Shown: positions 1 to 62,809 of the stretch, piece by piece
Position numbering within the stretch: position 1 is the stretch's first letter
Layout: each line of letters opens with the position of its first letter
Assembly (NCBI GenBank): GCA_000002445.1
Contig: AE017150.2
Coordinates: 384,001-448,000 of the forward strand
From: Trypanosoma brucei
Taxonomy: Eukaryota
Direction: 5' to 3'
Length of the DNA stretch: 64,000 nucleotides
Program-made: the position numbers and the translations under genes
Notes under the pieces: model-generated
The model's input: the letters and a program-made list of their open reading frames with translations, nothing else
Told to the model about the DNA's origin: nothing
Databases searched by the model: none

Positions 1-337
1 TATCGTAAGCCGCGGATCAGTAATTCCTCACGAAGAGAGAAAAAGTTGGCTTGAAGGCGAGCATCGTACGCGTGGAATTCACTGAGTATTCCGGATATGA
101 TGTGGCATGCTTTTTTTTTCTGCGTATTCTACTTTGTCTTGTTGGTTGGATGCAGTATCACGGTTCTGTAAACCCTTGCCACACATAATTTTAGCACGGA
201 ACGTCGCGGGGTAGAATGCAAGAAGTGTGCTCCTGATTGGTGCACATTTTGTCGAGCATAGGCCCACGACTTGTGCTGGTCACATATTTGTAGGTCTCTC
301 TCACGTTCGCTGCATGTGTTGAGAAGCCCCAACGAAG

Positions 338-805
338 TTACAGGGTGATACCCAGCACTTTCAGATTTCTCTCCTCACCCATGGGTGTGCCGTTTATCAT
401 CAGGATCGATGGTTTCCTTAGAAGCCCTCCGAACAGTGTATGTTTCGTTTTATACACGTTTAGTTGCTTGAAGGATTTATGACTCACTCTGGCCACAATG
501 CTCGGTCCTTGTTGTAGAGTGCGCTCGATATCTTCCCTGTTTGATCTCCTACACGTGATTGTCAGATGATCGGCAAAGAAACCGTGGTAACAGCTTAGGA
601 CTTCCCGAAGCCACCAAATAAGAGAGTTAGTGACTATGATGAAGGTAAGCGATCCAATGACTATTTCTTGATGACCTCCTCTAGTGAAGAATATTAGTTG
701 GGAGAATACTTTCTTTAAGCGACCTCTGTCTAATCGTTCAGGGAGACATGAAGCCGTCCAGCCATTCTGTGGGCCTTCCGCATCCAACTTTCTTATTTCT
801 TTCAT
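338..805 (-). mobile_element. Degenerate non-LTR retrotransposon reverse-transcriptase-like fragment (ingi/DIRE-type relic?), non-functional
   Basis: The minus-strand ORF contains 'RGGHQEIVIGSLTFIIVTNSLIWWL...GFFADHLTIT', which loosely resembles LINE RT blocks (RGxPQGSVLSPLLFxI ... YADD). The spacing between blocks is shorter than canonical. There is no long intact ORF in 1-2500. The call rests on motif resemblance only. Confidence 0.3.
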
Positions 806-2559
806 AAATTTGTTATGGTCTGCCGTATCAAATGATTTTGTGCTTTCAACGAAAGTGACTGGTCCGCGGTCAGTGCTGTGACGGCAATTTAATTAAGTGT
901 GATCTTGAAGCATGTCGCCAATTGCCGCATGCCCAGGAGAGGATCTAGGTTATCTGCTAGTCGGCTTCTGACCTTTCTTAGCTATTATTCTCACTCCCAC
1001 CATCTTGTCCATCGGTTTCGAAATGTTACTTGCGATTGTTACTGATCAGAAGAACGAAGTGTCCGATGGGTGTTTCCAGTTTTCTGTAGAGGGATAGTCG
1101 CCCCTCTTTTACATGTTCTGGGTGTTGTTGCCATCATAAGACTCCGGCTTAACCGCGCTAGGATCAGTTGTCTACCGAAGCGGCTCAGGTAGGTTGACGC
1201 AGTGCCATATACTTCGTCCTCTGGGGGAGCAGCACCGTTCGGAAGCTATCCTAGTGAATCCTTCAACTCGCCCACGGTTATTGGTCGAGTCCATTCATCT
1301 GGCTTTCTTTCTGGTGTTTGCATTAGAGGGGAGGCGGGAGACTTAGGAGTGTCGCGCTGATGTTTTTGCATACATTGCTACTTGATCACGAGCGTGCCGA
1401 CGCCATTTCATTGCTCGGTTGTCAACTGTAGCGACTGGGGTGACGAGTGGGCGTGTTGCAAAGACATTCTGTATAATTTTCCAACTACCCTAATCTGATT
1501 CACTCATCGTTGAGCATTTGTTCTTCTACCTTTTGACCGCAAGTGTCGTTATTAGTATTCGGTCCTCCGCGGCGAGGCGAATCGCTCATTAGTGTTAGTG
1601 CAGGCATTGTTTCTCTTTTCCATTTCGGCTCGCTCTCTGTGCCAGAAAGGCTTTTGGAGTCTTGGTTACTCGTGGGACTAGGGCAAGCGTCGCTTCCCTA
1701 ATAATTGTTGCTAACGTTTCACCGTGCGTGTGTGGATATCTTCCAAGTTGTCATTTTCTCTACCCCTCTCTTTTCCGGCGCGGTCTAACTTCCTCCAACT
1801 AGCGCATTTCTATGATAACGGGGTCCACATAGTCCGTTGTAGTGAAATTGGCATGCCATCAGGGCCAAGGCATACATCGATGAAAATGATACGATGATCT
1901 CCGTATGGAGCAGACCGTGGCGACCAGTTTGTAACATGGAAGTTCTTCGATAGAGTTGTATCGAGTGCGGAATTGATGCTACGGTCACAGTGTCGTATCG
2001 TGTGGTCTTCCATGTGTTTTCGACGGTGTACCAATTATCTTTGCACTAATGGGCTATGGAATCTTTCCTTTTAATCAGGGGGACATGTTTATCCCACGCC
2101 AGTAGGCTGGAATTAGAATACATACCAACTATATGCCGACCGGCATGAAGGAGATCGTCCGGCCCTTCTGTGGCGACTTCCCTCCTTCCTCGTGGAAAAT
2201 ATGAGGAAGTCAGTCTGTGTGTTGAAGGGATTGCGTGAAGTGTACTGTTGCATGTACAAATTCATGTCCGAAAGCCTTCGACACTGCCACCACGAGCGGT
2301 AGGTGGTCGAGAACGACAATGGATACACCTCCACCTATCGAGTTATAGCTCTCCTTGGGCGTGGCGGACGAATACGTGTAACACCGTCTTGTGCAGCTAC
2401 ACGCTCTATGTATAAGAGTTTGAAGGGGAGTTAGTGAGAGGGAATGGTGATGGTCAGGGTTTTTTTTTTTCGAGGAGTCCTCGGGAAGTGATTCAACATT
2501 TAGAAAGGGTGATTACAGGGCGCAATGGCGAAATGATGGAGACAGGAGCAGCTTATATT

Positions 2560-2834
2560 CATCATCGTTTTAGAATATGTTCATGAAACTCCACCTCTTC
2601 AGCGGGGCGAGGAACGCACACGTTCCACCCACTAAGTTCCATGAATAATAGGAACCATTCTTCTGCCAAACATTTCCAGTAAGAAGAGAGTGGCGCAAAT
2701 ATTATTCATTGAATTGAGTTCGCATAAGGTCCAGCATGATGAAAGACGTTGCCCCATTCGAAGAGTGCAATAGCGCGTCGCACTTTAAACCTAAGCGCGT
2801 GTGACTTTCCGCCGACGCCGCCTCAGTTTTGTGA
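2560..2834 (+). repeat. 275-bp dispersed direct repeat, copy A (near-identical to 13193..13467)
   Basis: Direct comparison of the two stretches shows 2 mismatches in 275 bp, both near the 5' end (T/C and C/G). Both copies end in ...GCCTCAGTTTTGTGA. Copy A is followed by AAAAGG. Confidence 0.9.
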
Positions 2835-3549
2835 AAAGGAGATCGCTTAGTTTCACAACCACCTGGGATATACTATTTCCTAGCGCCGCGAGGTGTTGAG
2901 CGGCGTTTTTCCACGTAGTCGCGTATGCAGAGATACCATTCCAAAGGGAGGCATTGTTATCACAACTATACTCGCCAATTGCACACTGGCGGAATGGCGT
3001 GCCGATGTGAGGGCGTTTCGCGGGAATGTCTATACCTTTCTGGAAACAAAATGTTACTACTTCAAAAAGATTACACGTATGGAGGAATATACTTTAGATG
3101 TGGACAAGGCGTTTTGTGTTGCTTGAAATTGTGCGAGCATAATTATTTTGACAGTTTCGGTTGAAGTTGTGCCTATACTCAAAATGTTGAGAGGCGGCAG
3201 AGGGGAGCTGCAACGTTTGTTGAAGGAGAGTGTCCATGTTGTGGGGCGGAAGTTGCAAAGCTTAGTGGAAATGAACATATTAGAGCGCGGCAAGCAGGAT
3301 AATTTAGCATGAGAAAAGTCTCCCCTTTTGGCCAACACCTACTCCCAGCAAACCAAAACTACACCAATAGACTAAAAATCGTTACCAAACCTTCCTCGTA
3401 CTGCCATCGATCTCACTAGCATTATTCAATACGAGTGGGTGCGTAACCCTAAACGATATAAGTCCAACACATCAAGCGCATACGCCGCAGGGTGAGAAGA
3501 GCTCCCAGTTAAGCGGAGTAAATAAGAAATGTGCGTGTGGGTGGATCTT

Positions 3550-4740
3550 TTACTTCCTCAGTGGTCTGGACAACCATTTTTGGTTCACCGCCTTATCAAT
3601 GGGACACACCTCAACGAAGCGTTTCAATGATAATTTCTTTCTCTTCGGGTTGTATAACCAAACCATTTGAGAGCGCAAATATTCCTTTGCTTGCTGGCGC
3701 CCATTCGGGGTCGCAAGCTGGCGATACCACGATAACACCCTCATAGACCTTTGCAGGCCCAGCTTCTCCCAATTGTTTGGTCCCGAATGGACAATGATGG
3801 AGGAGAAGTTTGCCTTGAGTGGGGCCCGGACAAACCACCTGGAGGTATAGTCAAGGGACATAATGCCTCTTCGTAGTAATAGTTTTTGGCTTACGTGCTG
3901 TGGTCTCGTGATGCTCCACATGAACACCACCACCCACATACTCTGATCGCACCACCACTTGTAGCTTTCTCTTTTGATGCTGAAGAATACTTTCAGGGCT
4001 TCTTTCAGCGCCCATACTCGTGCAATCGCGCCACCGCCATTGAGGTAGGCTTTCTTCACCCCACTGCCAGCGAGCCCTCCAGCACCTCCTTCGCTCGCCA
4101 GCTGCCTCATCTTCTCATACATATGTTCACAGCGCTTGTCACTTTTTTTGTCCTCATCCCCCAGCATAATATACGCTTGTGGAGCGTAACACCCCCTTTC
4201 GGTCGCAAAAATCAACGGGGAAGACATCACTCCCTGTAAGATGGCCGTTTCGCTGTATGCCTCTGGATTTCGTGGTGAACGCTGCAAGAAGGTCTGTATT
4301 TCCCTCTCCCTGAACTTTACTTCTGTAAAAAATGTGTCGGCACCATCAAACGCGACCACGATATCCTCATCCCGCATATTCCCCCTCCTGATATATTCCT
4401 CTATCCACGTCCACCTCCTAACATGCCCGTACCACCCCCCGTTCCCCACACTAACGACCGTTACATTGGTGAATAGGGAGCTAACCAACATTCTACACCA
4501 CCCCGGGGAAAATCTTGTCTGCGCCACGACGAAATGCACTTTGGCTACCAGCTCTCCACCAGGCCCTTTCGTGTCGTGCTGGTTATTTTTCAACAATACT
4601 GCTACCAAGCAAACGCTCAACAGCACCATGTTCCACACCACAATCGCTATCCCAACGCGGCATTCGAAATGGGCATCTTTTCCATTTTTTCTCTTCCTCA
4701 TATCCCTATAAAAGTGGAAAAACAGGTGATGCACACGCAC
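3550..4740 (-). CDS. Subtelomere-associated type-II membrane protein (ESAG3-like or glycosyltransferase-like; family not verified), intact 396-aa ORF; likely true start at internal Met (4701)
   Basis: The ORF is uninterrupted. It has a short basic N-tail (MRKRKNGKDAHFECR) followed by one hydrophobic anchor (IAIVVWNMVLLSVCLVAVLL) and a large downstream domain with a 'DEDIVVAFDGADTFF' acidic motif. A decayed paralogous fragment lies 0.7 kb upstream. Its position next to a VSG-like gene is typical of trypanosome subtelomeric gene families. Confidence 0.5.
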   Translation of the reverse strand: MRVHHLFFHFYRDMRKRKNGKDAHFECRVGIAIVVWNMVLLSVCLVAVLLKNNQHDTKGPGGELVAKVHFVVAQTRFSPGWCRMLVSSLFTNVTVVSVGNGGWYGHVRRWTWIEEYIRRGNMRDEDIVVAFDGADTFFTEVKFREREIQTFLQRSPRNPEAYSETAILQGVMSSPLIFATERGCYAPQAYIMLGDEDKKSDKRCEHMYEKMRQLASEGGAGGLAGSGVKKAYLNGGGAIARVWALKEALKVFFSIKRESYKWWCDQSMWVVVFMWSITRPQHVSQKLLLRRGIMSLDYTSRWFVRAPLKANFSSIIVHSGPNNWEKLGLQRSMRVLSWYRQLATPNGRQQAKEYLRSQMVWLYNPKRKKLSLKRFVEVCPIDKAVNQKWLSRPLRK

Positions 4741-5447
4741 ATATATTTATCTATATCTATATCTGTATATATTTATATATCTACAGTAGTGTGTTTGTGA
4801 AGGTTGAAGTGGTTGCGGCTGACTTACTCTAACCCTTCGCAGCTATTCCAAATCCGCGATTTTGTGTGTCGGGGGTATAGACATTTTAAAAATATTTCGT
4901 AGAAATATTCTAACGGGTCTCGTAAGTTGTTAGTCTTTTCCCCCCAAAAGTAATTCTAGGATCATCTCCGAAAGTTATTTCATCTTGCTTACGGTTATAC
5001 CGCCAGAGTTTGGTGGTGAATTTTCCTATTTTCCCTTCCCAACTTTACCGTTTCCAAGCAAAGTGCAGAATAGGATCCATCACATCGAGTTTATCGTAGC
5101 AATAATAGAAGAATTCCGTATTGAAATCAAGACTCACTAGGCTTCTCCTCATTATCAATTTTCTTTCCACATCCTGGATTGTGTGACACTCCAAACAAAA
5201 AGGAGGTTCCAGATACTCTGATCACACCACCATTCGCTTTCCCTCAGGTTTTTTAGAGATTTGTAAGATTGGATAGGCTCTTTATACGCCCAAACGCGAC
5301 CAACCATCCCACCACCGTTTAGATACATACGCTACGAGTGTGGCACCTTCAGCATCGCCCTCGCAGCTGCGGAGCGGATTCTTGCTTTCATATAGAACCA
5401 TGCGCACCTTTTCCTATGTGGCCAGCTGAAGGGCCCTAAAATCATCT

Positions 5448-5675
5448 TTAACTGCGGGCATAGCAATCCACTTCCGTTGCGAACACAAATGGAGACGTTT
5501 GCCTTTCTCTAAATATTTCCCTTTCATTCAAGTATTTTGGAGAGTGAGGTGATCTTTCAATGAATTTCGAAAGTGGTGTCTCCATTTGAACTTTGTTGCT
5601 AAACATTGTATTTCCTCCGTCAGATGTAACAACAATATCCGAGTCGCTAAGGCGCTCGCGCTGTATAAACTCCAA
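5448..5675 (-). pseudogene. Decayed fragment paralogous to the 3550..4740 membrane-protein gene
   Basis: The translated 75 aa 'DSDIVVTSDGGNTMFSNKVQMETPLSKFIERSPHSPKYLNEREIFRERQTSPFVFATEVDCYA' aligns with 'DEDIVVAFDGADTFFTEVKFREREIQTFLQRSPRNPEAYSE...SPLIFATERGCYA' of the intact gene. The flanking frames are broken. Confidence 0.55.
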
Positions 5676-8600
5676 CAGTCACTCAGGCCTCTTTGCATGC
5701 TGATACTCTCTCCCAAATCCTATTGTGTCGACACTAACGCTGTTGGTACGATTGCTGTTCACTCATCTTTCCGCCTTTATAATGTCAATCCGAAAACCAC
5801 CATCGAGAACAGTAACGGATATCGCCTTACGCACCAATTAGTTACACAATTTCCACTCAATTTCAATCCGACTTTCCGCTGCAATTAAATGTCTTTAAAC
5901 CTGTTGGTATCTTTTAAGCTCATCGACACATTTGTGATTCTTACTTAAAAATAAAGATGAAACACACCTCGCGGCGGCGGGGGCTCCTTTTTGCTTTGTC
6001 TGTTTTCCGCTTCGGCGCAGCCGACCCCAACTGAGTCACCTGCTGTATACCTTTCAATTTCATGCTGGTGTGATAGTTTTCGTACCATATGCAAGCACAT
6101 AATTGTTTTTCTTGTTCTCCACAGCAGCTATACCGCTTTGCGTCTTCGATGCCAAGCCTGTGCTTTGTCGGTTCCCCGAATTCCCCTGTCAAAGTGAAAT
6201 TCAAAGAAAAAAATTGACTGTCACTTGTGAAAGGTTTTCTATCGTTATGTCTTGGCCAGTTCCATGCTCTCCCCGCTATTCCTTGGGGAAAACCCGTCTT
6301 GCTGTACCATCCTCACGCGCGTTCCACACGGGCACTTTTCCTCTTTACCCACAGTTTTCGTTGCATACTTCCCCTTCATCTGTCCAGCTAGCATTTCCGA
6401 CGCATATTCACAACACGACAACACTCAGGGTCAGACCCACGTCCATTACAGCCCCACAATTCCTCGGATGCAACCACTCCTGTGGTCCTCGTGCCTGGTA
6501 CTTCCGCCTCCACCTATGTCGGCGTCGCCGCGCATAGCCACTGTTAGGTGCCAACAAGCAGAGTTCTTCGGATACTTGTGAAGGAGCGTGGTGGCTTCTC
6601 GATATTATCTCCCTGCAAATAGACCTTTTCCATTATCTAACTTTTTGTGTGCTGGCAAATTAAGTCGTACCTAGTGGAATCGTCCCCCTGTTTTGTTTGC
6701 GCCCACCCAAGGTTGCTAGTCTGTTGCGGAACCTTCTGCTCCGATGGAGGCTTTTGCCTTGGTCGAGATGCTGACATTTCTCCCCTCTATGTTTTCTGTA
6801 GGTGGAGAATACGACATTACCAGGTTTATTGCAACAATACTCCAAATGGTTTGCATCAAACATTTCTGTTATGTTAAACAGCGCTACGGGTGTTTCCATC
6901 AGGTTCATCATGCAGACCAGCACGCCAAAAGCGCCACTGTTCTCCATGCCCTGGATGCGTTGCCTCGTTACTTTGTTCAGTTGGACACCCACTACAGAGA
7001 CAATGCGTCACCCTGTTCATTACACATCTTTAAACAACCTTCACTTCCCCCCAAGTTTTTCACCTTCTTCAAATGTGCATCTGGAAAATATCATAAACAC
7101 GGCACCACCAGGGTTTTAACACAGGCAAGTAAAAGCACTTTGCCCTGGCAGAGGGTTCTACAACTAGAGGCGCACATTATGGCAGGCGCGCCGCACTCCA
7201 TCCATTTAGTGAAGCACTGCCTTCTTTCGCTTCTCAGTCTTTCAATATCACTGCAGAATTTTGATAACGCTGATTTTTTTTGATTTGAATTTTCTTCATG
7301 CCTAGTCTGAGAGAATCTCCCGCCAGTGAGGGCTCCGGCAAATCCAATGGAGAACCATAAAGATATTTCAGCAGCGTCTCGGAGTTGTTGATGCCGCTGA
7401 AGACGCATCCCCTAGGACATATCAATAGGAAAACAGTGTTCCATTAAGATACGACTTGTCCCCGTCCTGTGGTGTAGCCGGGGGGCAAAATCGGTTCTCA
7501 ACAGGTGTGGAACCCTGCCAGCTCTGGGTCTCTCGCAAAATACGGGCAGCTAGTCCTTTCACGACATTTATGTGGTTGCCACAGCCAGAGGGTGTTTTCT
7601 CTAAAACATGGTTGCTCCACGGTGCTGTTAGACTCCGTAATTTCTGCACCCACGTGCCGCGATGAGACGGCTACCGCTACTCCAGGGTGTACCACCCACG
7701 TTGTCAGCGGGAAATACACGCTTACATTCTCATATATATGGATGTACTGTCCTCGATTGGGGGCTTTCTCTAACGCTTCACAGTGGAAACGTCAAATACA
7801 CTCCCTAACTGCGGGGCCGTAAAGGGTAACTCCTGTTCAGTTACGCGATTCCGATGGTCACACTGTTGGGTCTTTAGTTGCTCTTAAACTTCTGTCGCGG
7901 TGTCGGGCTTGGCAGAATCGAAACTGAAGAACTCATATATCTATCCCCGTGCACCAAACGTAGAGTTGTGGCATCACTCACTGCTGCCTTGTCTATTTAA
8001 TGTTGTGTACTCCATACAAGGGCGTTGCCGTTTCAGGGTAGGTGTTCCTCTAACGCATGAAAAAACTGAGCCCCCCTTTTGTCGCATACAATCATCTTTG
8101 TGAGTTCACCCCCAAACCATAGTGGTGGCAGACTATCCAATCTCACAACTACTGGCCTGTGAGGTGGATTCTCTTCACACCTATCAGCGCGAGTGTGCTT
8201 ATTGCTGTGTGGATTCCGTGTTTGATTCTTTTTGATATTGTGCTGCCTCCTCTCGAACACCATTTTCTATTGCGTTCTAGGCATAACAAGCATTATTGCA
8301 ATCTCTGAATGGTAAAAGCTCTGGGACAATGTTGTTGAGTTTAGACGTCTGGGGATGAAGTCTACTTCGTCTGCTTTCTTGAAGCGAACCATCATGCCAC
8401 TGAGTGATGACATTTGAGCAAGCATTTCAAGCACTGGGCGTACTTGACACTCACCGAGTTTATAGTCCTGGCTTGCAAGTTGCTTCTCTCCGAGGCATCG
8501 GGCTCTTGTGTGCGAAGCCAACCACCCATTTGATTAATCCGCGAAGCAGCAGTACGTGCGTTCTGGCAGATTCATCACTGTTTTTGCTCCATCCTTTGGG

Positions 8601-9055
8601 GGCTAATTCTGTCGTTGTTCAAGAGGTGCGCGCCCCGCTGCATTTTTTTCGCTTCACAATGCTTTTTTCGAATGAATCGTTGCTGGCGGCAGTGCACCGC
8701 GATGCTACATTCCATTTTAAATGACGGTGTCTTTCTCTGTGCGTGCCGGAAACCTACGAGTTCCACGCCTCACCGTATTTTCTTTTATGCAGTCCGCTGT
8801 GTTTTTCCCATAAATACTGTACGTTCTACGGAGCATTCTAAACTCTCGGTTTTTACCACCTTTCCCCTCGACAGCGACATCACTGAAAAATTCAACGTGC
8901 TCCCCACGACGAGGCACATAGTCGCACTTTTCATCCCGTAAACTCCATTGCCTCAGCGAGGGGAGAATCATCATTTTCCACGCGCATCTAACGGTTCGCA
9001 GGCTTGGCTACAACTACAATCACCATTTTTTGGGAATTACTCGTCGGAGGGATTT

Positions 9056-10390
9056 TCATGGAAGGAAAAATAGCCACAACGGAACACTGATTTTGTCTGC
9101 TTGGCTTGCTAATGGCGGTCTTTTTATATCTATGCAGTTTCCTTCCCGTTTGTTGCAACCTGTGTGCGTACATTCTGCTTGACTTTCGCACTCACTGCAT
9201 TCAACGCCGGAGCTAGGACCCTTTTGCCCACGTCCCTTGTTACATGTTGTGCCATCTTTAAGTTGAGAGATTCCGGATCGGGGCATTTGGCTTAGTTTGC
9301 TTGTTTTTATACTCTCAACATTTCTCAGGATATCCTTCAATTTTTTCTCAATTTCTCTTAACTTATCTATCCTAGTAGCTGCTTGTTGCAATACCAGGAG
9401 CCAAGGGACCGCAGGGTTCTCATTACCTACCATCTCCGTTGGATATTGGACGCATTTTCCGTTACCTGGTTGCGTGTGCCCAGTGCATCCGTGCTGGGGC
9501 TCCCCGCTCGCTGCTCCGAGAAATGTTTTTGTACCTTCCTTCTGTGCTGTAGAACGTTTAAGGACCTCCAAAAAAACCTTAGTGGCGCGTGAGAGGGAAC
9601 TGCTGGATAGTTTCTCGTTGGTACCGATCGACTTGCATCTTTGGGCCAGATGTTTCCATCGAGTGTTCGATTGCTCTACTGGCTTCCATGGATCTTCATT
9701 TGCACCGGTGCTGCAGCCTTCGCAGCATGCCTGCTGCCGATCGTTCGGCATGGGAGAACCTCCGCATATGCACAACAAATCCACGATCAACGACTTTCCT
9801 GCCCACACACTTGGTTGTCCACCTTTTCCTCCACAAACTTCCACAGCTTCCAGGTGTTGCTTTATCATAACATCAGCTTTGTTCGACCCACTGAGTGCGT
9901 CACTTAAACTCTTGTTGATCGGGCTCATTTTCAGCTCCAGCCACAAATTGTTGTTTGTTTTCATGCACGTGTGCGCGTTTTCTACTGCTTCTTTTATTTT
10001 TTCCTTCCTTAGTATGTCGAAGTTCGCTTCAACCCACTGAATATACCGAGTCTTGTCACCTTTAAGTTTGGTTCCCGCTTCTTCCCAGAAGCTCCAGTAG
10101 CCTCCTCCCCCTCCACCTTCGCCTTGCCGGCCTACCTGGACATTTTCTACGTCTTCCGCCTCGGACAAACTTTGAAGCCCAACAGCCAAACCAATGGCTC
10201 CAATATGCCTCGCTGAGTCTTTGACGCTTTCTTCGAGTTGCTGCGTTTCCAGATCTTGGGAAAAGTTTATCATAGCACATAAGGCTCCAAACTCTTGTTC
10301 GTTCACCAGGGGCTCTCTCGCCCCCACTACACAACTTAACTGACCTATTACTGTCACCACTAAGGGAACCCAACACCCAGTCGCCTTCAT
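9056..10390 (-). CDS. Variant surface glycoprotein (VSG)-like gene, possibly atypical or pseudogenic
   Basis: The 444-aa ORF has an N-terminal signal peptide (MKATGCWVPLVVTVIGQLSCVVGA) and a long helical N-domain with sparse Cys. Its C-terminal domain is Cys-rich (CNKGRGQKGPSSGVECSECESQAECTHTGCNKREGNC) and ends in a hydrophobic GPI-signal-like tail 'DKISVPLWLFFLP', matching the VSG consensus ...PLWLAVLLF. The tail is shorter than canonical, and no 16-mer TGATATATTTTAACAC was found in the 3' flank. Confidence 0.6.
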   Translation of the reverse strand: MKATGCWVPLVVTVIGQLSCVVGAREPLVNEQEFGALCAMINFSQDLETQQLEESVKDSARHIGAIGLAVGLQSLSEAEDVENVQVGRQGEGGGGGGYWSFWEEAGTKLKGDKTRYIQWVEANFDILRKEKIKEAVENAHTCMKTNNNLWLELKMSPINKSLSDALSGSNKADVMIKQHLEAVEVCGGKGGQPSVWAGKSLIVDLLCICGGSPMPNDRQQACCEGCSTGANEDPWKPVEQSNTRWKHLAQRCKSIGTNEKLSSSSLSRATKVFLEVLKRSTAQKEGTKTFLGAASGEPQHGCTGHTQPGNGKCVQYPTEMVGNENPAVPWLLVLQQAATRIDKLREIEKKLKDILRNVESIKTSKLSQMPRSGISQLKDGTTCNKGRGQKGPSSGVECSECESQAECTHTGCNKREGNCIDIKRPPLASQADKISVPLWLFFLP

Positions 10391-12956
10391 CTCACCTCTC
10401 TGGAGTGGCGAAAAATGAATAGTATAATTATTGAAGTTTCCAATCTTCAGCAGAACGCAATATTCAGTGAAAGCAAGCTGATCTCTTTCCCAATATCTGA
10501 TAATAGAAAATAAAAATTTAGTGTTTATATGTTACACTCAATTCCATTATCAATCGTAGAGACAATTATAATTTAAGCAAGGTTGAAACGCTGACGGCAC
10601 AACTTCCAGTAGATGGTAATCGCCTTGGCTCCACGCATTTGCCATCCATCCGCTCACGTCACGTTTCCCCTTTCAGGCTCTTGCATGCTTCCTGTGTTTA
10701 CGACCCTCACATCTCGGTAGTGGGGAATCACTTCCCTTACGGCTACCATTACTTTCAGGTGCGATATTACTGGCGGGGGAAGTTTTGTTTTCGTCGTGGC
10801 TTCCAGCTTTATTTTCTATATTGGTGGTTGTTTCGAGTACCAGTAATGAAACTAGTTTAGTTTCAAATTTTAATGAGCTTTATACGTGCGCACAAGTTGC
10901 AGATGGGTTTGATGATTACTTTCCCTTGTTCCTGGATTCAGTGACCTGCTGAGTTAACTGGTAAATTTCGCTTCCTGTTTCCTTCAAACACTTCTCCCGC
11001 GCCCTCAATACGTTCGCCCTGCTTTCTCCCTGGTCGAAATCAAGCATTTACTTTGTCCCGTTGTTACTGCAATGAAGATGCTATTCGCAAATTCCCACTG
11101 TGCCGCCGGCTTTACCGGCACGGCCTCGAATACGTGCAGTTTTCCATCGTTCGAATACATGTAGGACGTGCTCTTCAGAGCTGTGCAAAAGTCTTTTGTG
11201 TTGGTCACAGCAGTGCAATTCGTGCTTGCTGGATCTCTTGCTTTCGGTTTAATACACGCCTCCTTGAAGTCCATCTTTTTGCGCCGGATACTTTAATATC
11301 CAGTTCTCCGTCTCGCTGTTGTGCGCATTTGCTGCAAGAGACTCTTTTGTTAGGCTCCCCCAAGGTCCTTGTCGCCCACATTAGCACAGGTTGGGGCTCA
11401 GGTCCAATCCGCCCCACGTTCCTGGTTGGGCGCATCCTTGCTCTGAGCTCTGATTCCCTCCTGCTGGGACGCCGTTTGCTTGTTTGCTGCCATATTTTGA
11501 GCGAACAGAACCACCGTGATTTTTCGCTCTAGTTCTTCGCTATTGAAAGATCTTTTTTTTTTGATCTTTTAATATGTGTAGCTGGATACGTTAGCTTTTC
11601 CTTTCATTCCTCAATCAGAGATTTGTTTTTTCCTCTCTCCGTCTCCCACGGGTGCCTGCTGTTTCCTCCAAAAAATGTCAGTCAGATTTCATTCCTTCCA
11701 GTTCCGTCCCACTCACCATGTTGTGGATACTATTCGTTCACTACGGTTTCTCTTCTTCCTGAAACACCCCACTGCGCTTTTGATAGGCGTGCTGCCCTGA
11801 CCTTCATAGCGACTTTGTTTTTTAGTCGTTTCCGCCTTATTGATGTTGACCACCCCTTTCCGCAATGCTATCGGTATGCGCATTGCATTAAACTCCACGC
11901 TGTTGATTATGTCTGCAGTTCTCAGTTCCTCTGCCACGGCCGTTGATGACACCACCATTAGAGCAACATCATGATTCACATCTTCTGTTTCCCCTAACCC
12001 TAGCAACTGCCTTCTCAGCTAATGCTTGTAAATAACCACATCCACAGTGGAACCCATATGCTGCTCAACAGGAATAACGTACGGTTCCGGCAGGTAAACA
12101 CACCCATCATACTTCTCTTTTCAATGCATTTATCCAACCAATATTTTCCTTCCGATTATACGCACAACCCCACAGTTATCCAGTTAGCAAATGAGGAATA
12201 TTGTTGGAATACGTTTCTATACTGCTGCCAAAGCTTCAGTAAGGTAATGAATGGGATTGCTAGGACCCGTTATTACATTTGGACGACTCTCCGCCTCTGC
12301 CCATAAATATAAAGTATAAACTTGTCGTCCCTGAGGCCCACTTCAATTGAACGTAAATAAATAAATGAATATATGCTTCTATCTGTAACCCTCAAAAGAG
12401 CATACACCGCACATGTGTTTCCAACTCATCGAAAAGCTCTGTTTAATAACACGTTTTTTTTTAAAAATTCCCTATTAATGCCACAATCCCATTAAATCTA
12501 CGTGCCACTAAATTTTATGATAAAGTAACTTCAAACACCCAAATGACAAATTAACCCTCAGACAATGAATATCTTAACAATATTCTGTCCTAAGCCCACG
12601 AGTTAAAATCTCACCAACAGTTAAAAATTACAACCCCACGCCAACTTCGAATGACTTCCCGTGGGAACTACAATTTCTGCATAACTTTTCCCGTGTTGGC
12701 TATTCTCCTCCCTACATTAACACGCCAAGCTCCAATTATTTAACTCCCGAGGCTGCAAACAGCATGGACATTTCAGACAAGATGGTGGAAGTTAATGTCC
12801 GGTACAACAATTAGCAATCGGCTTGTTGTGCTAAAAGATTTCAGACCTTCCATGTTTGCATTGAAACTTTTGGGAAAGGTAAGTCGCCGTAACGGTGATG
12901 TAAACATTAGGGGTAAATCACCGGCATGGCGACTGCCTTATGAAAATAAATAATAT

Positions 12957-12984
12957 ATATATATATATATATATAAAATACGGC
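12957..12984. repeat. (TA)n microsatellite
   Basis: ATATATATATATATATATATATAAAATA is visible in the sequence. Confidence 0.9.
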
Positions 12985-13192
12985 CTCGCAGGCTAAATTC
13001 CTAACAACTCCCGTGTCATTTAGGATGAGGATTGATATCCTCACCTCAGTTTGCGAAGCAGCTGAGGCAAATACGTTTAAACAAAGAAACATTTATTCAA
13101 TTGTTCTCTTGCTGACTGACTGACAGATGCTCACTGAATGGGGCAAAACAACAAGAACAAGAACAAGAACAATAATAATAATAATACCGTCG

Positions 13193-13467
13193 CATCATCG
13201 TTTCAGAATATGTTGATGAAACTCCACCTCTTCAGCGGGGCGAGGAACGCACACGTTCCACCCACTAAGTTCCATGAATAATAGGAACCATTCTTCTGCC
13301 AAACATTTCCAGTAAGAAGAGAGTGGCGCAAATATTATTCATTGAATTGAGTTCGCATAAGGTCCAGCATGATGAAAGACGTTGCCCCATTCGAAGAGTG
13401 CAATAGCGCGTCGCACTTTAAACCTAAGCGCGTGTGACTTTCCGCCGACGCCGCCTCAGTTTTGTGA
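13193..13467 (+). repeat. 275-bp dispersed direct repeat, copy B
   Basis: It is identical to copy A except for 2 positions. It is immediately preceded by (AAC/AAG)4(AAT)5 triplet repeats (13147..13188) and immediately followed by an A11 run (13469..13481). Confidence 0.9.
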
Positions 13468-14869
13468 TTAAAAAAAAAAACGACGTTGAAAGTTTTGATG
13501 ATCGAGCTGTTAAGCACTGAGGTTCCTTTTGGTGAAATATATCTGAAACAATCGATAACAGCAGAAAATAAATGATATGCCTGACAAAATAAACGGAAGC
13601 ATGTGATTCCGTTTATCTTCAAAAGGCATTGCTTTGAAGTACACGGCAGTTTGCATAACACCCCCCCCCCACCCCTCTGCAACCCGGTTGCTGAAATGGT
13701 GATGTTTATGGAGTCGCCGAAGTCGTTTGCTTTTGAGGTGTCTCCTCGCCACGGAAGGAAATAATAATAATAATTAAAAAAAAAAAAAGAGGACTTGTAC
13801 AACCGCATCGGGTAAAACGCATAAAGTACCTTCTAAATGGACAGCTGCTTCATGTTTTGCATTTGGGAGTGAGAAAATGTGGATACGGCAATAAAGTCGT
13901 GAAAGGCTCTACGGAAAGTAAAAGAGGTTTGTAACGGTGCGAAAATGCATTGCATTGGCGCAGGCAAGAGACAGACCTTCCACGAATAACTCGTCTATGA
14001 GAATGGTTTTGTACCTTCTCTTTCTTTCTTTTTTTTTTTTAAATTACCCCATACGGTTATTAGTGAGAAACTCACCACGTCAAATACGCTGCTGCGTAAA
14101 GCATTCCCCTCCCCCCACCGTTGGTGTTTCAGCGGTACTGATATCTTCCATAGTTAAAGGCAAGATATCCAGAGATTGTTGGAGGTGTGTGTGTGTGTGT
14201 GTGCAAATCGAGTAAAAATAATAATAATAAGAAACGATATATCAAGTCCTTCCATTCCCTTTCTCGACACTAATGTGCAAACACGACTGCATGTTACACT
14301 TTTATCCGTGCATATCATCAATCCACTCCTTTTTCATTTTTTTTTTTTAAACTGAAAGAGTTCTACCTTCCCCTTTAATTTTAAATATTCGATTGGTTCT
14401 GATTTGTTTTGGACATTACCCGCGCTTAAATGTGAAGAACAGAGAGAACAGAAGAGAACTGTGGCTGCGTGTGTGTATGTGTGTATGTGTGTGGACAATT
14501 TACCATTAGATAAGTTCCTGAGGTACACCCAGTGGAGAAGAAACAAACATCATTGTTGATAAAGCGAGCATGCAAATTCACATTTACATATGCCTTGTAC
14601 AATGGTAACAGTAGCAAAGAAGAAGGAAAAAAAAAGGGAGGGGGGGGGGAAAGATGTGCCAACAAATAGTCGATGCCGTTTTTTTTCTTAAAAAAAAAAA
14701 CAACAACAAGAACAACAGTACAAAGTTGCCCACACGCACGAAAATGGACATCATCCAGCCGATTCAATGTTTCGTTGCAACTTCCTCCCACCGCGATTTG
14801 GACAACCATTTGAGGGTTGTGTGATTCTTTGGATTTTCAAATTACATACATTTTGATCTTTTGTTTTCT

Positions 14870-17806
14870 TCAGCTCCCCGTGTGTGTACCACTCGGCCGA
14901 GTTCTTTCGTAGGGGAGTGGTGGAAAGGACTCCACCTGACGCCGGTTATATCTGCTAGGTGTGTAATCCAACGAAGTATTATAACGAACCGTTTCAGTCT
15001 CCACTACATTATTTTTAAGTTTTGGTAAGCCACCCTGTACCCTACTGGGCCCTTGCCTGAGATTGTTTTGGATTCCTCTTCCCGTTTCTGCGCGACTTAA
15101 CCCGAGACCACGCTGAGACCAGGGTTGTTGATCGTGCGTGTCTGCCTGTAGTTTCTGACGCATCAGCCGCGACCCCAACGTTGTTTCGGTCCCTGTCGAA
15201 ACTCTGTCACACCGTAAAGGATGGTGCAGCGTCGGTATTTGAGAACTTAGGGAAATCGGTTCATTCTTTAATTTGTACAACTTCCGTGGATCTACAGCCG
15301 CCACCTCCGTGACAAATGACGGTGGCTCCGGTCCACTCGAAGCCGCGGTACAATCCAGTGCTGCATTTGGAGAGCCGCTGTTCTTCGTATGCGCTTGGAC
15401 GAGAACGCGGATAATGTTACGAAACTCCGTGCGCTCCGCCTCGTACAATGCCAACCTCTCCTGTAAATCGTAGATATGCTCCATCAGTTTTTTCTCCAAT
15501 GCCGTCTCCTGCGTGCTGTGGAATTCCTGTTGCATTGTCTCAGACTCCGTAGCGAAGGCCTGCTGCCCTTCCCCCTCATCCGCTGCGAATTTCGGTGTGC
15601 TTCCCGGACGTACCACCGAATACGTGGCTGTCGACGCCTCACCGCAACCGTCACGTAGTTCCGTAAGGATTTCTTGCCTTACGGAGGCTGCTGCTTCTCT
15701 AGCCTTTGTTGTTATGGTTGAACACGCTTCATCCAAACTAACCGCGATTTCCTCGCGAAGCATCTTGCGCATGTCCACGAGAATTGCTGCGGTTTCTACA
15801 CTCCGGGCCCGGGGAGGTGAGGGAAAAATCATAGTGGGATCCTCGCGTCCTACCCTTCCTTCAATTTCCCCGGTAGATGACAGACGGCTGGTGGCCCGCG
15901 GCGGATGTGGTGACTGCCGAAGTCGTGTGGTTTTGTAGTCGCCTCGCGGGGCCTTAATGACCTTTTGAATCTCCGTTGCTTTCCTCATCTCACGATTTTT
16001 TAATGCTCTCATTTTCTTCTTGAGTAGTTCCTCATTTCTGCGCAGCATTTCTTCATTTCGCTGAAGGATTTCTTCGTTCCGCCTCAGCATATCCTCATTC
16101 TTCCGCTGCATATCCTCATTCTTCCGCTGCATCTCCTCATTTTTCTGTTGCATTTCCTCGTTCTTCTGGTGCAATTTCTCGTTCTTTTGGTGCATTTCCT
16201 CGTTTCTCCTGAACCTCTCCTCGTCGATCTCAAGCAAACTTTTGCTCCCACCGACAGCGTCATTGACTGTGATCCCCTTATTTCCGGCATCCTCCAGCAC
16301 TTCCTCACGTAATGGATAAGTTTTTTTGTCCTCCTCCGAGTCCTCTCGTGCATTTCCCTTGGGGATGTCTTCACTTTGTTTCGTCTCCTCAGCACCTTCT
16401 CTAGTTATGTCTGCTTCAACTGTCGCTGGCTTCACATCATCTTTATCTTCCGGTACGTCCTCACTGACCTTTAGGACATCAACAGTTTCCTTGAAGGCAA
16501 CCTCTTTTGGCTCTTTGTCATCTTCATCTTCATCTTCATCTGTTTCCTTCGGCACCTCCTCGACTTTTCCGGACCCCTCCCCTTCCATATCTAATGAACT
16601 TCCATCCTTCTGTGGAAACTCCACAGTTTGCTTGTGTGCTGCCCCAATTCTCACCGGTAGATCCTTCAGCCCCTTGCAGAGTCGCTTTCCCACCACTACA
16701 CTTCTATCTTTCTTTATTGCCCTTCTTCCTTTTCCAATACCCTCGCTGCTTCTAAGGGAGCCATCACTACTTCTACGCGCATCCGTATCTTGATGAAAAT
16801 ATTTGATCATACCTACTTCGGGTGTCAGCCTTTCCTCATGGATTTTTGGAACGTCGTCGCCGTCATCCTTCTGCTGCTTCGGGGTTTCTTCAACAACTAA
16901 ACTTTCTTCCTCTTCCTTCTTGTCGTCATTTGGGACCTCATCTCTTCCTCTGAGAGTTTCTTCCACGTTGGTTAACATATCCGCATTATGCCGAAGCATG
17001 CTCAGGTTACTTTTTAGCATATCCACATTACACTTCAGCATTTCTACACCGCTTTTCAGTATTTCCTCCTTATCCCTCGGTGTCTCTTCGTACGAGGTGA
17101 GCACATCCACATTTTGCTTCAGCACCTCTTCATCTTTCTTCAGCACTTCTTCGTTCATCTTTAGTGTCTCCTCAGTGCTTTTTGGCATCTCTCCAGCTTT
17201 TTTGAGAATCTCCTCGTTGTTTCTGAGCATGTCCGAAGTATTCTGTAGCATGTCAACGGCATTTTTAATCATTTCATCGACAACTTGTGCTGTATCCATG
17301 CTACCCTCAGAGGCTGCTATAGTACTGGCTTTAGTCCCTGGTCGCTCACTCACTGAAGTTTGCGAATCTAATGCACTTTCATCCCGCGCATCATCGCCGT
17401 ATTCGCGTCCAAAAGTAGACATAACATTTGTACCGCTTGTATCCCATGAGAATTGTTCCGTTGGCAACATTCTATTATCTGTTTGGGGGAGTGAACAAGC
17501 GCTACTTGTCAGAGCGGAGGAGGTTCTGTTCAGTACTGGTGTCGGTGTCGTCTGTTCAACATCACGTTGAGTTCTACTTGGAAAACTTCGCGGTTGTGAT
17601 GTGGCGCTTCGCAGCTGATGTCCATCTGAACATGGAGTTGCATTCCTTCTCACCTCGTCCCACACAATGTTCACACTTTGCTGCAATTCATTGAGGCGGC
17701 GGCTAATATGACTCCTCATGTTACGTAAATAAGACTCCAACTGAAAGCAATGCATGAGCGAGTCCGGAACGGGAACAAGTTCATCCATTTCGGGTTTCAT
17801 TGTCAT
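14870..17806 (-). CDS. Large repeat-containing hypothetical protein (978 aa) with two arrays of degenerate ~8-aa repeats, predicted coiled-coil
   Basis: The ORF is uninterrupted. Array 1 is 'NEEMHQKNEKLHQKNEEMQQKNEEMQRKNEDMQRKNEDMLRRNEEILQRNEEMLRRNEELLKK', encoded by 24-bp tandem DNA repeats at ~16028..16212. Array 2 is 'VDMLQNTSDMLRNNEEILKKAGEM...VEMLKCNVDMLKSNLSMLRHNADMLTNVEETLRG' at ~16968..17280. The flanks are acidic and Ser-rich. Confidence 0.7.
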   Translation of the reverse strand: MTMKPEMDELVPVPDSLMHCFQLESYLRNMRSHISRRLNELQQSVNIVWDEVRRNATPCSDGHQLRSATSQPRSFPSRTQRDVEQTTPTPVLNRTSSALTSSACSLPQTDNRMLPTEQFSWDTSGTNVMSTFGREYGDDARDESALDSQTSVSERPGTKASTIAASEGSMDTAQVVDEMIKNAVDMLQNTSDMLRNNEEILKKAGEMPKSTEETLKMNEEVLKKDEEVLKQNVDVLTSYEETPRDKEEILKSGVEMLKCNVDMLKSNLSMLRHNADMLTNVEETLRGRDEVPNDDKKEEEESLVVEETPKQQKDDGDDVPKIHEERLTPEVGMIKYFHQDTDARRSSDGSLRSSEGIGKGRRAIKKDRSVVVGKRLCKGLKDLPVRIGAAHKQTVEFPQKDGSSLDMEGEGSGKVEEVPKETDEDEDEDDKEPKEVAFKETVDVLKVSEDVPEDKDDVKPATVEADITREGAEETKQSEDIPKGNAREDSEEDKKTYPLREEVLEDAGNKGITVNDAVGGSKSLLEIDEERFRRNEEMHQKNEKLHQKNEEMQQKNEEMQRKNEDMQRKNEDMLRRNEEILQRNEEMLRRNEELLKKKMRALKNREMRKATEIQKVIKAPRGDYKTTRLRQSPHPPRATSRLSSTGEIEGRVGREDPTMIFPSPPRARSVETAAILVDMRKMLREEIAVSLDEACSTITTKAREAAASVRQEILTELRDGCGEASTATYSVVRPGSTPKFAADEGEGQQAFATESETMQQEFHSTQETALEKKLMEHIYDLQERLALYEAERTEFRNIIRVLVQAHTKNSGSPNAALDCTAASSGPEPPSFVTEVAAVDPRKLYKLKNEPISLSSQIPTLHHPLRCDRVSTGTETTLGSRLMRQKLQADTHDQQPWSQRGLGLSRAETGRGIQNNLRQGPSRVQGGLPKLKNNVVETETVRYNTSLDYTPSRYNRRQVESFPPLPYERTRPSGTHTGS
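16028..16212. repeat. Imperfect 24-bp tandem repeat array (~8 units) inside the CDS
   Basis: The unit is TTCCTCATTCTTCCGCTGCATATC-like and reiterates with point changes. It encodes the NEEMQRKN octad. Confidence 0.8.
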
Positions 17807-18934
17807 CGCGCCGTCTGGGAGTTTGTGGACGTTGACAACTTGCGTCGCGGTGTATCAGGTTTCGTGTTCGCCTTGTGTAAAAAAACAAAACAAAACAAAA
17901 CAAAACAACAACAATAACAACAACAACAGCAGTAAATACAAACACAAACGACCGTTACCCAAACGACGGCAGATTCAAAGAAGAAAAGGAAGAGGAGTGT
18001 GTGAGAGAGAAAAGGTGGAAAGAGTGAGACGCACTTTAAAAATAAAAATAAAAATAAATAAATAAATATATATATGTGCTACCCTAAACTATATTTAAAT
18101 ATGAAAGCAGCTTGCGACCTTTTGTTTTGTAGTTTTCTTTTTCGTGTGTGTGTGTGTGTTTGTTTGTTTGTTTCACTAGCCTTGTTTTGTATACTTTTGT
18201 AACAATATAATAAACGTGAAAAGTTTCTAAACCCCCTTTCTTTTCTTCTTTTTTTTTCCTCTTTTTGCTTTTGTCTTGGCTCCACGACACCCAAAACCGT
18301 TTATCGGCCCCGTGATGTCTGCAACTGTATTGATGTTAGTGAAACGAACGACCGAAAGAAGACGAATGCAAGAAAAGAATATATAAATACGAAGAAGATA
18401 AATAAATATAAAACACACACCTACACACGAACAGATAAGCAAATGACACAACAATGGAGGTATGACGGAGTTGCATTTGTAATGCATTCAAAGGGGAAAA
18501 AAAAACAAAAAGAGATATGCCCTTCTTTATGTAATAGCGCCAATTCGACACACTATTCACGCACACACACAAAAAAAAAACGCAAAGCAACAAAAAGAAA
18601 ATATAAAGGAAGAGATAGAAATACAGAATATACAGAGAGATACTTAATGAAAGCTCATTCAAAGTTATGAGAAATAAGAAGCAAAACATCCGGTGGTTGC
18701 CTCTGCTTCTTTTCTTCTTCTCTTTTTTTTTTTTTTACTATCCGTCCCTTGTTGAAAATTATAACTCCATTCACTGTATGAATTTTAGTCAGTTGCATGT
18801 GTTCTGCTAAAGCGATGTGATTTATGAAATGAAGAACTTCCCTTTTTTCCCTCTCTTTTTTTTTTATAAAAAAAGATTACCCGCATTTGGCTCCTCACGT
18901 TCATGCGTTAAAACCCTCCTTTTCGGATATAACG

Positions 18935-18935
18935 T

Positions 18936-18978
<43 letters not shown>
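18935..18978. repeat. Compound (CA)n(TA)n microsatellite
   Basis: ACACACACACACACACACACACACACATATATATATATATATA is visible in the sequence. Confidence 0.9.
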
Positions 18979-19882
18979 AAGTATATATGTTTGCTTCTTC
19001 AGTCTAACCTTAGCTTGCATTTATTCCTTAAATGGTCACTTGAGTGGCACGAAACATTTTCTTTAGAAAAGTGACTGGGAAGTCAAATGAAGAAAAAAAA
19101 AAAAGAAGAGGAACATTTTTTTTTCTTTTCTTTTCTTTAGAAGGGAAGTGTAGCAACACATCATTCGGTATATATATCATAAACATTTACATATGCTGGT
19201 TCCATTCCAGTAGCCTCAATGGTAAGTTAGAATAAGAAGGGAACTGAGAAATAGAGGGGGAGAAAAAAGAAGAAAGGGAGGAGAACAAACAATCCGACAA
19301 GCAAAAATAAGAAGGTAAGAACGAAACGGGAGGGAACGAAATGAAAACAAAACGAAGCAAAATGAGGGGCGGCAGCAAAAAAAAAAAAAAAGCGGTTACC
19401 ACCACTTCTTCTCAACGCATTTCAACAGAGACACCGGTGCTAAACATTACAAGTCACTTATATTCTTTTTTTTTTCCCCTCCTCCTCCTTCCTTTCTTTT
19501 TTTTTTTGCATAAAATTTACGTGCTCACAAAGCTCCTTTCGTATAATTTACCCGTCGCCTCTTACGACAACATGATTACCGGAAGCAAAGCAAGAAAAGG
19601 AGCAAAGGAAGGAAGAGGGGAAACAGAAGATCAGCACGTCCCAAGCAACATAAAAAAAAAAATGGAAAGAAAGAAAGGAAAGGAAGGAAAGAGAGCAAAA
19701 CACAAAACAAACGCTTTCCATAAACCTTCACAGCCCTTGAAGGTGTGGATAAAAGGAAAGACAAGTCGCCCATACGAACAAACACACAAGCACACACAAG
19801 TACGATCATACATATATGTACAAATACTTTGTTTTTATTATTATTATTATTTTCTCTTATAATAAAATAATAACCAAATGTA

Positions 19883-62795: not shown

Positions 62796-62809
62796 AAATA
62801 AATAAATAA

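Follow-up and report, generated by a model that had tools for sequence, protein, structure and literature searches.

Two copies of a 275-bp sequence, here called R, lie in direct orientation on either side of an island with a VSG-related gene and an ESAG3-like gene on chromosome 2 of Trypanosoma brucei TREU927. We think it fairly probable that R is a two-copy, non-coding, low-copy intergenic direct repeat, which is kept alike by gene conversion and seems to lack a function of its own. All coordinates below refer to the window, i.e. the whole 64-kb stretch of this chromosome that was analysed.

A repeat pair flanking a VSG-related island

Copy A of the repeat occupies 2560..2834 and copy B 13193..13467, as delimited by pairwise alignment, a repeat finder and nhmmer/blastn. 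An earlier note on this DNA had described near-identical direct repeats, and this held: the alignment and the repeat finder gave two mismatches in 275 positions (99.3% identity) and a spacing of 10,633 nt. Both substitutions are inside the first 30 nt of R as read on the plus strand, near the 5′ ends as described. The abrupt loss of similarity on either side was also confirmed, because blastn with a word size of 7 found nothing past the 275 bp in the 5-kb neighbourhoods. The earlier note had allowed that the copies might be part of a longer collinear segmental duplication. However, the 275-bp match was returned alone both by word-7 blastn of 1-5000 against 10391-14869 and by a self-comparison of 1-20000. 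R is a discrete unit without flanking homology and not a collinear segmental duplication.

The window contains two copies of R and no more (nhmmer and blastn). A 42-nt piece of R occurs twice in it, while shuffled sequences gave an expectation of zero. Unrelated T. brucei-group loci (L004 and L005, about 42 kb together) contained no R-like copy, and the search did detect a second copy of an ingi-type element in them.

Some details of the immediate flanks differed from the first description. An A11 run does follow copy B, but it is not directly adjoining, as TT precedes it (13468..13480, plus strand). On the gene strand, this is a T11 polypyrimidine tract just 5′ of copy B, which is T13 in T. 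b. gambiense and BoTat. The microsatellite (AAC/AAG)n(AAT)5 is present beside copy B (13145..13185, plus strand) and differs in length among strains, but seven nucleotides, ACCGTCG, lie between it and the repeat. Copy A was said to be followed by AAAAGG; its actual 3′ neighbour sequence is AAAGGAG.

The interval between the copies (2835..13192, minus strand) is 10,358 bp long, and together with one copy it makes a unit of 10,633 bp. Its contents, all in minus-strand orientation, are two genes, one pseudogene and the relic of a retroposon. The claim that the pair brackets a VSG-like and an ESAG-like gene was supported for both genes. The VSG-related (VR) gene Tb927.2.2060 (9056..10390, 444 aa) matched Pfam VSG_B with E=1.9e-52. 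The ESAG3-like gene, of GRESAG3 type (3550..4701, 383 aa), encodes a protein identical to XP_951520, which is annotated as an ESAG/ESAG3 protein. The ESAG3 pseudogene survives as fragments in three reading frames (5063..5762) with 34-41% identity to the neighboring ESAG3-like protein. The relic (7340..7592) is the degenerate 5′ end of an ingi-clade retroposon and starts with CCCTCTGGC.

Both copies are intergenic, between annotated genes, and belong to one polycistronic unit. On the minus strand, copy B lies 1.4 kb downstream of the stop codon of Tb927.2.2090 (14870..17806, minus strand), which encodes a T. brucei-specific protein of 978 aa, and 2.8 kb upstream of the VR gene. Copy A lies 716 nt downstream of the stop codon of the minus-strand ESAG3-like gene. 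It is separated by 89 nt and an A11 run (2460..2470 on the minus strand, T11 on the plus strand) from a degenerate, DIRE-like non-LTR retroelement, element X (1..2350, minus strand), which continues past the start of the window.

Strain comparison and gene conversion

We compared four genomes: TREU927, T. b. gambiense DAL972, T. b. equiperdum BoTat and T. equiperdum OVI. T. b. gambiense has copies A and B at the same junctions as TREU927. In BoTat, copy B likewise occupies the TREU927 junction, and the contig ends within the island. In OVI, the contig with the orthologue of Tb927.2.2090 ends precisely at the border of R, and the assembled island forms a loop that passes through R. By their contig structure, the BoTat and OVI assemblies are consistent with both copies at shared junctions. 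The earlier note had read the near identity of the copies as a sign of recent homogenisation or recent insertion. As both copies are at the same junctions in T. b. gambiense, the duplication of R is old, and recent insertion is refuted by these common positions.

The substitutions revealed the cause of the near identity. R has nine variable positions. At positions 175, 178 and 208 of R, both TREU927 copies have G, T and T, and both gambiense copies have C, G and G. Three variable sites thus group the copies by genome, and none groups them by paralogue. Within one genome, copies A and B differ at two sites (TREU927) or three sites (gambiense), while the same copy differs at five and six sites between TREU927 and gambiense. 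Since lineage-specific substitutions are common to both copies within each genome, gene conversion must have occurred after the divergence of the strains. At positions 38, 142 and 218, gambiense and BoTat share a copy-B-specific state, and copy B of TREU927 has the copy-A state. A single A-to-B conversion tract in TREU927, covering at least positions 38-218, would account for this pattern. The two residual mismatches in TREU927 (positions 253 and 264) are beyond such a tract.

Copies A and B thus undergo concerted evolution by gene conversion. Other cases of ectopic (non-allelic) gene conversion are alike in that copies within a genome are closer than the same copy between strains. They also share the presence of lineage-specific substitutions in both copies, and a tract pattern with one end of the repeat unconverted. 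Unlike the conversion in VSG or rDNA families, it concerns here a sequence of only 275 bp that is non-coding and apparently neutral, and for these reasons the conversion has no obvious selective meaning. The divergence of R between strains is 1.8-2.2%, compared with 1.9-2.5% in the surrounding kilobase. By these values, R diverges at the local neutral rate, without constraint.

As an alternative to a mobile element, the earlier note had proposed that the pair is a recombination substrate or footprint that was homogenised recently. The shared junctions in gambiense and the lineage-specific substitutions in both copies support this alternative. As a whole, the earlier interpretation was only partly upheld: recombination and homogenisation stood, but the retroposed element and the recent insertion did not.

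Origin of the repeat pair and similar repeats

We suggest that a single duplication of one 275-bp intergenic segment preceded the split of the T. brucei subspecies. The duplication probably occurred during the rearrangement that brought the VR/ESAG3 island beside a degenerate retroelement at the margin of the chromosome core. The co-oriented copies now serve as partners in homologous recombination, in which non-crossover gene conversion repeatedly overwrites one copy with the other. The 99% identity of the copies results from such repeated conversion, a step shown by the pattern of substitutions. A crossover between the copies would remove the 10.6-kb VR/ESAG3 cassette from the chromosome, free it as a circle or add a second copy in tandem. 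In T. brucei, homologous recombination increases as the substrate lengthens from 50 to 200 bp, with a plateau near 200 bp (PMC1904282). Given this plateau, R, with 275 bp at 99% identity, is a fully competent recombination substrate.

Repeats of this kind have been catalogued as "repeat alignment groups" (RAGs) in Leishmania and T. brucei, and the commonest family size in L. major is two members (PMC4028189). Ubeda et al. (2014) defined them as non-coding, intergenic sequences on the same chromosome, of 0.2-2.5 kb and at least 85% identity; they counted 773 low-copy intergenic repeats in T. brucei and detected rearrangements by PCR at four pairs (PMC4028189). Recombination uses such repeats as substrates. 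In its sequence features, R fits this low-copy intergenic direct repeat class of trypanosomatids (PMC4028189). R is non-coding and intergenic, lies on one chromosome, and has a length of 275 bp and 99% identity. It is a two-member family, by the copies in the 64-kb window, and its position is conserved among related taxa (both copies in gambiense, copy B in BoTat, and OVI contigs that branch at the edges of R). As with the RAG-type repeats, a crossover between its co-oriented copies would give a circle or a deletion. However, the R pair, in the Tb927.2.2020-2.2090 region, is outside the four T. brucei examples tested by Ubeda et al. The emphasis also differs: for R, gene conversion is read from the sequence, whereas rearrangement products come from their pairs (PMC4028189).

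Comparison with retroposons

R could alternatively be a piece of a retroposon, either a member of an unclassified short dispersed family or the 5′ UTR of element X, with copy B as a solo fragment of a second element. We regard this as unlikely. Copy A does lie directly 5′ of element X and on the same strand. Element X consists of endonuclease-like pieces (2344-1726) and a reverse transcriptase (1377-341). Single frames gave just a weak match to Pfam RVT_1, and the joined frames gave an RVT_1 match of 38.7 bits, above the curated cut-off. Pfam endonuclease models did not match the joined frames. A word-indexed homologue search with the composite translation of endonuclease and reverse transcriptase returned nothing, and an exhaustive search with the reverse-transcriptase segment succeeded. 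When full-length relatives were mapped onto element X, the endonuclease was placed to start at about 2490-2590 and the ORF at about 2540-2840, which is at or inside copy A. Copy A therefore occupies the place of the 5′ UTR that element X would have as a full-length element. A search for a target-site duplication of element X, meant to anchor the 5′ end of X with respect to R, revealed an A-run coincidence only. Further in favor of a retroposon, relics are abundant in the island and its flanks, and the A11 run adjoins copy B on the plus strand. Like members of the ingi clade (ingi, RIME, DIRE, TbSIDER1/2), R is short and non-coding, it lies among retroposon relics with one copy at an A-run, and a DIRE-like element has copy A on its 5′ side.

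However, the hallmark of the ingi clade, a 5′-terminal conserved signature of 76-79 nt named Pr77 (PMC3820030, PMC8190864), was absent in and beside R. We compared the L1Tc Pr77 with both strands of R by Smith-Waterman alignment with shuffles and by nhmmer. The Smith-Waterman scores did not exceed those of the shuffles, and nhmmer had no match inside R; its best match nearby (2836-2915, E=6.7) was unconvincing as an alignment. The same search recovered two true signatures, one at 15800 of locus L002 (E=0.001) and one at 7592-7529 of the window. The two copies have no common poly(A) tail on the plus strand, where copy B is followed by TT and A11 and copy A by AAAGG; on the minus strand, an A-run is absent at the end of either copy. 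The earlier note had proposed a check for target-site duplications at both copies, and none was found in the 40-nt flanks. The flanks of copy A, like those of the whole unit, had a longest common word of 5 nt, which shuffles matched in 68-79% of trials, and the flanks of copy B shared no word of 5 nt or more.

R was compared with three TbSIDER2 copies, taken from the supplement of PMC4035085, and with the ingi-type element of T. b. gambiense (L002, 15800-17535), a set without consensus sequences of TbRIME, full-length Tbingi, TbDIRE and TbSIDER1; neither gave a significant match. Moreover, retroposition gives 5′-truncated copies and not solo 5′ fragments. The idea that copy B is followed by another retroelement remnant was also rejected, because tblastx of element X against the island detected nothing like X there. 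The lack of further R copies in the window and in the unrelated loci searched also speaks against a retroposon piece. R thus differs from ingi-clade elements in lacking a 5′ Pr77, a common poly(A), a target-site duplication and similarity to the compared members, and in having two copies in the window. The proposal of the earlier note that R is a retroposed element or a 3′ fragment of one (RIME, ingi, DIRE or SINE-like) was not borne out on these grounds, the A-run being at one copy only.

Two other origins were considered and rejected. Two further ESAG3-like loci (L004 and L005) are without R-like sequence, so R is not explained as an ESAG3 3′ flank. Nor is it explained as a processed-mRNA retrocopy of the ESAG3-like gene, because the spliced-leader sequence is absent from the window.

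A circularly permuted contig in T. equiperdum OVI

No deletion, circle or tandem allele at R was found in the four genomes examined. It is nonetheless conceivable, if very improbable, that the R pair is an active hinge, through which the 10.6-kb VR/ESAG3 cassette leaves as a circle, re-integrates or is tandemly amplified; the pair would then have been left behind by a Campbell-type integration. The OVI contig CZPT02000629.1 (10,647 bp) corresponds to exactly one unit in circularly permuted form, and it starts and ends in the (TA)n microsatellite at 12953..12975. It runs from the island end through one copy of R to the island start, a junction that is absent from a single-unit chromosome. Its R copy matches copy A at position 253 and copy B at position 264. 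In addition, rearrangement products at T. brucei direct repeats have been detected by PCR (PMC4028189). However, a two-copy repeat that is collapsed in a short-read assembly yields the same loop contig. The end of the neighboring OVI contig at the R edge and the break of the loop contig inside the (TA)n microsatellite are both typical assembly-graph behavior. Furthermore, T. brucei reportedly neither maintains nor amplifies such circles (PMC4028189), and the TREU927 and gambiense chromosome assemblies have one unit each. The circularly permuted contig may equally be an assembly collapse. If the excision reading were true, this contig, with its A/B-hybrid-like R, would be a real junction, and the surface-protein island would be under a reversible copy-number switch.

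Coding potential and possible function

R is non-coding, with stops in all six reading frames. Its six-frame open segments, when concatenated, had no match in a collection of 5.8 billion proteins; because known loci gave no match either, this protein search was powerless for the genome-wide copy number of R. A scan for bacterial promoters and terminators was empty, but these are bacterial models and irrelevant to T. brucei.

Least credible of all is that the copies are alike because they are functional as a cis-element or an ncRNA, for instance as a 3′-UTR regulatory module common to Tb927.2.2090 and the ESAG3-like gene or as a trans-spliced transcript with its start after the T11 tract. In its favor, each copy follows a coding gene on the strand that is transcribed, and a polypyrimidine tract (T11-13) and then AG precede copy B. 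But the neutral rate of divergence between strains argues against this reading, and constraint could not produce lineage-specific changes in both copies. Rfam had no gathering-threshold match across the window (relaxed matches with E<=1 were noise), the fold z-scores of R (gene strand, -0.59; plus strand, -1.83) revealed no unusual fold, and a tRNA search with ARAGORN returned nothing. Nothing points to a function for R itself.

Implications

If R is a low-copy intergenic repeat maintained by conversion, it has little weight alone, being one more among the hundreds of such repeats counted in T. brucei. It also has a practical consequence, as it explains an artefact: short-read assemblies break at R and may yield the island as a false circular contig. 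As a case, R is small and clean, in that ectopic gene conversion has acted on neutral DNA across a distance of 10 kb in the chromosome core. Because the VSG-related and ESAG3-like genes could be lost or doubled in one recombination step, the locus is a candidate for copy-number polymorphism among strains.

The repeat pair and its neighbourhood

The 275-bp direct repeat, R, was placed by pairwise alignment and a repeat finder at 2560-2834 (copy A, 275 nt) and 13193-13467 (copy B, 275 nt). The copies show two differences over 275 nt and start 10,633 bp apart. The coordinates, length, mismatches and spacing in the earlier note were all exact. A 42-nt piece occurred twice in the window, compared with no occurrence in 100 shuffles. 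The homology stopped sharply at both ends, as had been noted from the sequence, and neither word-7 blastn of the two 5-kb neighbourhoods nor self-comparison of 1-20000 revealed homology beyond the 275 bp. Therefore, the pair does not belong to a more extensive collinear duplication, an outcome that the earlier note had set against its own reading. A third copy was not found in the 64-kb window by nhmmer and blastn.

All ORFs of at least 180 aa in the window were on the minus strand, except for three antisense ones inside larger minus-strand ORFs; thus, we read the locus throughout on the minus strand. In this direction, Tb927.2.2090 (17806-14870, XP_951523 by exact look-up) is followed by 1.4 kb of low-complexity intergenic DNA, with T11 at its end, and then by copy B. 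After copy B come microsatellites, 2.8 kb of DNA and the VSG-related gene Tb927.2.2060 (10390-9056, minus strand; Pfam VSG_B, E = 1.9e-52; XP_951521 by exact look-up), which was named as such in PMC2771046. Between this gene and an ESAG3 pseudogene sits the degenerate 5′ end of an ingi-clade retroposon (7592-7340, minus strand), starting CCCTCTGGCTGTGG. The pseudogene (5762-5063, minus strand) is split over three frames and has 34-41% protein identity to the product of the intact ESAG3-like gene (4701-3550, minus strand), which lies immediately downstream of it; this indicates that ESAG3 was duplicated in tandem long ago. The intact gene encodes a protein 100% identical to XP_951520 from T. 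brucei brucei TREU927 and, with the other exact look-ups, places the window on chromosome 2 of this strain. The order then continues with 0.7 kb, copy A, 89 nt, A11 and X, a degenerate retroelement.

Some other features of the window were also observed. A protein kinase corresponded to XP_951524 by exact look-up. The stretch 24001-28000 was AT-rich (GC 0.31-0.35 against about 0.47 elsewhere) and contained simple repeats of the (TA)n and (TAAA)n types, which recurred at 62776-62885. A very long minus-strand ORF of 4279 aa (49365-62204) took up one fifth of the window.

The same locus in other genomes

Window 1-14203 had a collinear counterpart in T. b. gambiense DAL972, 98.8% identical, with both copies of R at the same junctions as in TREU927. 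T. b. equiperdum BoTat had copy B at the same junction. Its chromosome-2 record (CM010673.1) has its first position within the island between the copies, at window 5887, and so is without the ESAG3-like gene, copy A and all beyond. Given these shared junctions and the two contexts of R in OVI described next, these T. brucei-group lineages separated after the duplication, and the recent insertion proposed earlier is excluded.

In T. equiperdum OVI, R had two different left-hand contexts. The contig with the Tb927.2.2090 orthologue extended only to the edge of copy B (window 13470). Another contig (CZPT02000629.1, 10,647 bp) was a circular permutation of one unit, namely one R plus the island. 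Starting in the (TA)n near 12971, it crossed the island and one R and then re-entered the sequence downstream of copy B, where it ended at 12957. Its junction of island end, R and island start was absent from the TREU927 chromosome. This layout is what a two-copy repeat collapsed in an assembly graph looks like, and assembly collapse is the likely explanation; a real tandem or circular form of the unit is also conceivable.

The (ATT)n(GTTCTT)n microsatellite (13145-13185) and the T-run (13470-13480) flanking copy B varied in length among strains. The T-run was T11 in TREU927 and T13 in gambiense and BoTat; the microsatellite had additional GTTCTT units in BoTat and one ATT less in OVI. The microsatellite described earlier as (AAC/AAG)n(AAT)5 is present before copy B, but a 7-nt gap separates them. 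The A11 reported directly after copy B follows an intervening TT.

Gene conversion between the copies

We aligned the six available copies of R, numbering positions on the minus strand, and found nine variable positions. At 175, 178 and 208, both TREU927 copies and OVI had G, T and T, whereas both gambiense copies and BoTat copy B had C, G and G. Thus three sites grouped the copies by genome and none by paralogue. At 38, 142 and 218, gambiense had T, T and C in copy B (shared by BoTat copy B) and C, C and G in copy A; at each of these sites, TREU927 copy B matched copy A. The two TREU927 copies differed only at 253 and 264, close to one end. Within genomes, the copies differed at two sites (TREU927) and three sites (gambiense), while between strains there were five (A-A) and six (B-B) differences. 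The two copies of R therefore exchange sequence by gene conversion. Every variable site would be explained if, in the TREU927/OVI lineage, A had overwritten B once, over a tract that includes 38-218 at the least and ends before 253. The recent homogenisation suggested earlier is supported by both the substitution pattern and the distances, with ectopic gene conversion as its mechanism. Selection was rejected as the cause of the likeness, because constraint could not yield identical new substitutions in both copies; moreover, R diverged between strains (1.8-2.2%) as the surrounding kilobase did (1.9-2.5%).

Is the repeat part of a mobile element?

X (window 1-2350, minus strand) is a degenerate DIRE-like non-LTR element that runs past the window start, on into 12143-15800 of the gambiense locus. 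Its joined reading frames scored 38.7 bits for RVT_1 (cut-off 29.6), and an exhaustive search with its reverse-transcriptase segment gave 221 relatives, a trypanosome RHS-RT fusion among them. Endonuclease-like pieces aligned at 2344-1726, with the motifs GGGVSIVV and GDHRIIF. Judged by these similarities, X is a genuine retroelement, with numerous frameshifts and stops. Full-length relatives mapped onto X put the start of the endonuclease domain at about 2490-2590 and that of the ORF at about 2540-2840. Hence, provided that X is not truncated, its 5′ untranslated end is expected at the position of copy A. That copy A is this end is the main rival explanation, and we consider it rather unlikely: R has no Pr77 signature, no X-like sequence follows copy B, and solo 5′ fragments are not a normal outcome of retroposition.

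As one of two readings, the earlier note had proposed that R is a retroposed element or a fragment of one. The ingi-clade elements (ingi, RIME, DIRE and SIDER) all have the 76-79-nt Pr77 signature at the 5′ end (PMC3820030, PMC8190864). With the L1Tc sequence as query (Table S3 of PMC8190864), Pr77 scored no higher on either strand of R than on shuffled sequence. The same nhmmer search recovered two signatures, a genuine one at 15800-15874 of the gambiense locus (E = 0.001) and, at window 7589-7529, a degenerate one, so it works on such material. The former belongs to an internally deleted ingi-type element (15800-17535) about 1.1 kb past the window start, with a Pr77-like 5′ end (CCCTGGTGATGCTGG...), a poly(A) tail and C2H2 fingers. 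The element was found a second time, on another chromosome of BoTat (L005, the locus of another ESAG3-like gene, 16220-17560), which showed, as a positive control, that dispersed elements can be recognised in the compared loci. R matched neither this element nor three TbSIDER2 sequences (PMC4035085 supplement), and no further copies of R were present in the other T. brucei-group loci compared (L004 and L005). Target-site duplications, which the earlier note had proposed to look for at both copies, were not found around copy A, copy B or the whole unit, and an A-run adjoins just one copy. The retroposon reading is thus not supported.

Other readings were tested as well: R had stops in six of six frames, no spliced-leader sequence of a retrocopied mRNA was found, and R was absent from two other ESAG3-like loci and so does not flank ESAG3 genes in general. 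Translations of R had no match in the protein collection, a search that also missed known loci and so gives no information on copy number. R contained no tRNA and no Rfam family at gathering score (relaxed matches were noise), and its predicted folds were not unusual (z-scores -0.59 and -1.83). No function of its own is evident.

Recombination and origin

Low-copy repeats of trypanosomatids were catalogued by Ubeda et al. as intergenic, on one chromosome, 0.2-2.5 kb long and more than 85% identical (PMC4028189), and R has all of these properties. Families of two members, the number of copies seen here for R, were the most frequent in L. major (PMC4028189). T. brucei has 773 such direct or inverted repeats; predicted rearrangement junctions were detected by PCR at four pairs, the R pair not among them, and the products are not subsequently amplified in this species (PMC4028189). 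Recombination efficiency in T. brucei rises linearly from 50 to 200 bp of substrate and reaches a plateau near 200 bp (PMC1904282). At 275 bp and 99% identity, R is therefore a fully competent substrate. The earlier suggestion of a recombination substrate or footprint is upheld and can be sharpened to gene conversion between the copies.

If a crossover took place between the copies, the 10.6-kb island with its VSG-related and ESAG3-like genes would be lost, turned into a circle or duplicated in tandem. An active role of the pair in excising or amplifying this surface-gene island seems very improbable, the one hint being the ambiguous OVI contig. Candidate origins of the duplication are a long target-site duplication with the island inserted between staggered breaks, Campbell-type integration of a circle, and a templated patch in break repair. 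The R pair itself is undescribed, within a class of low-copy intergenic repeats that is already known and numerous.
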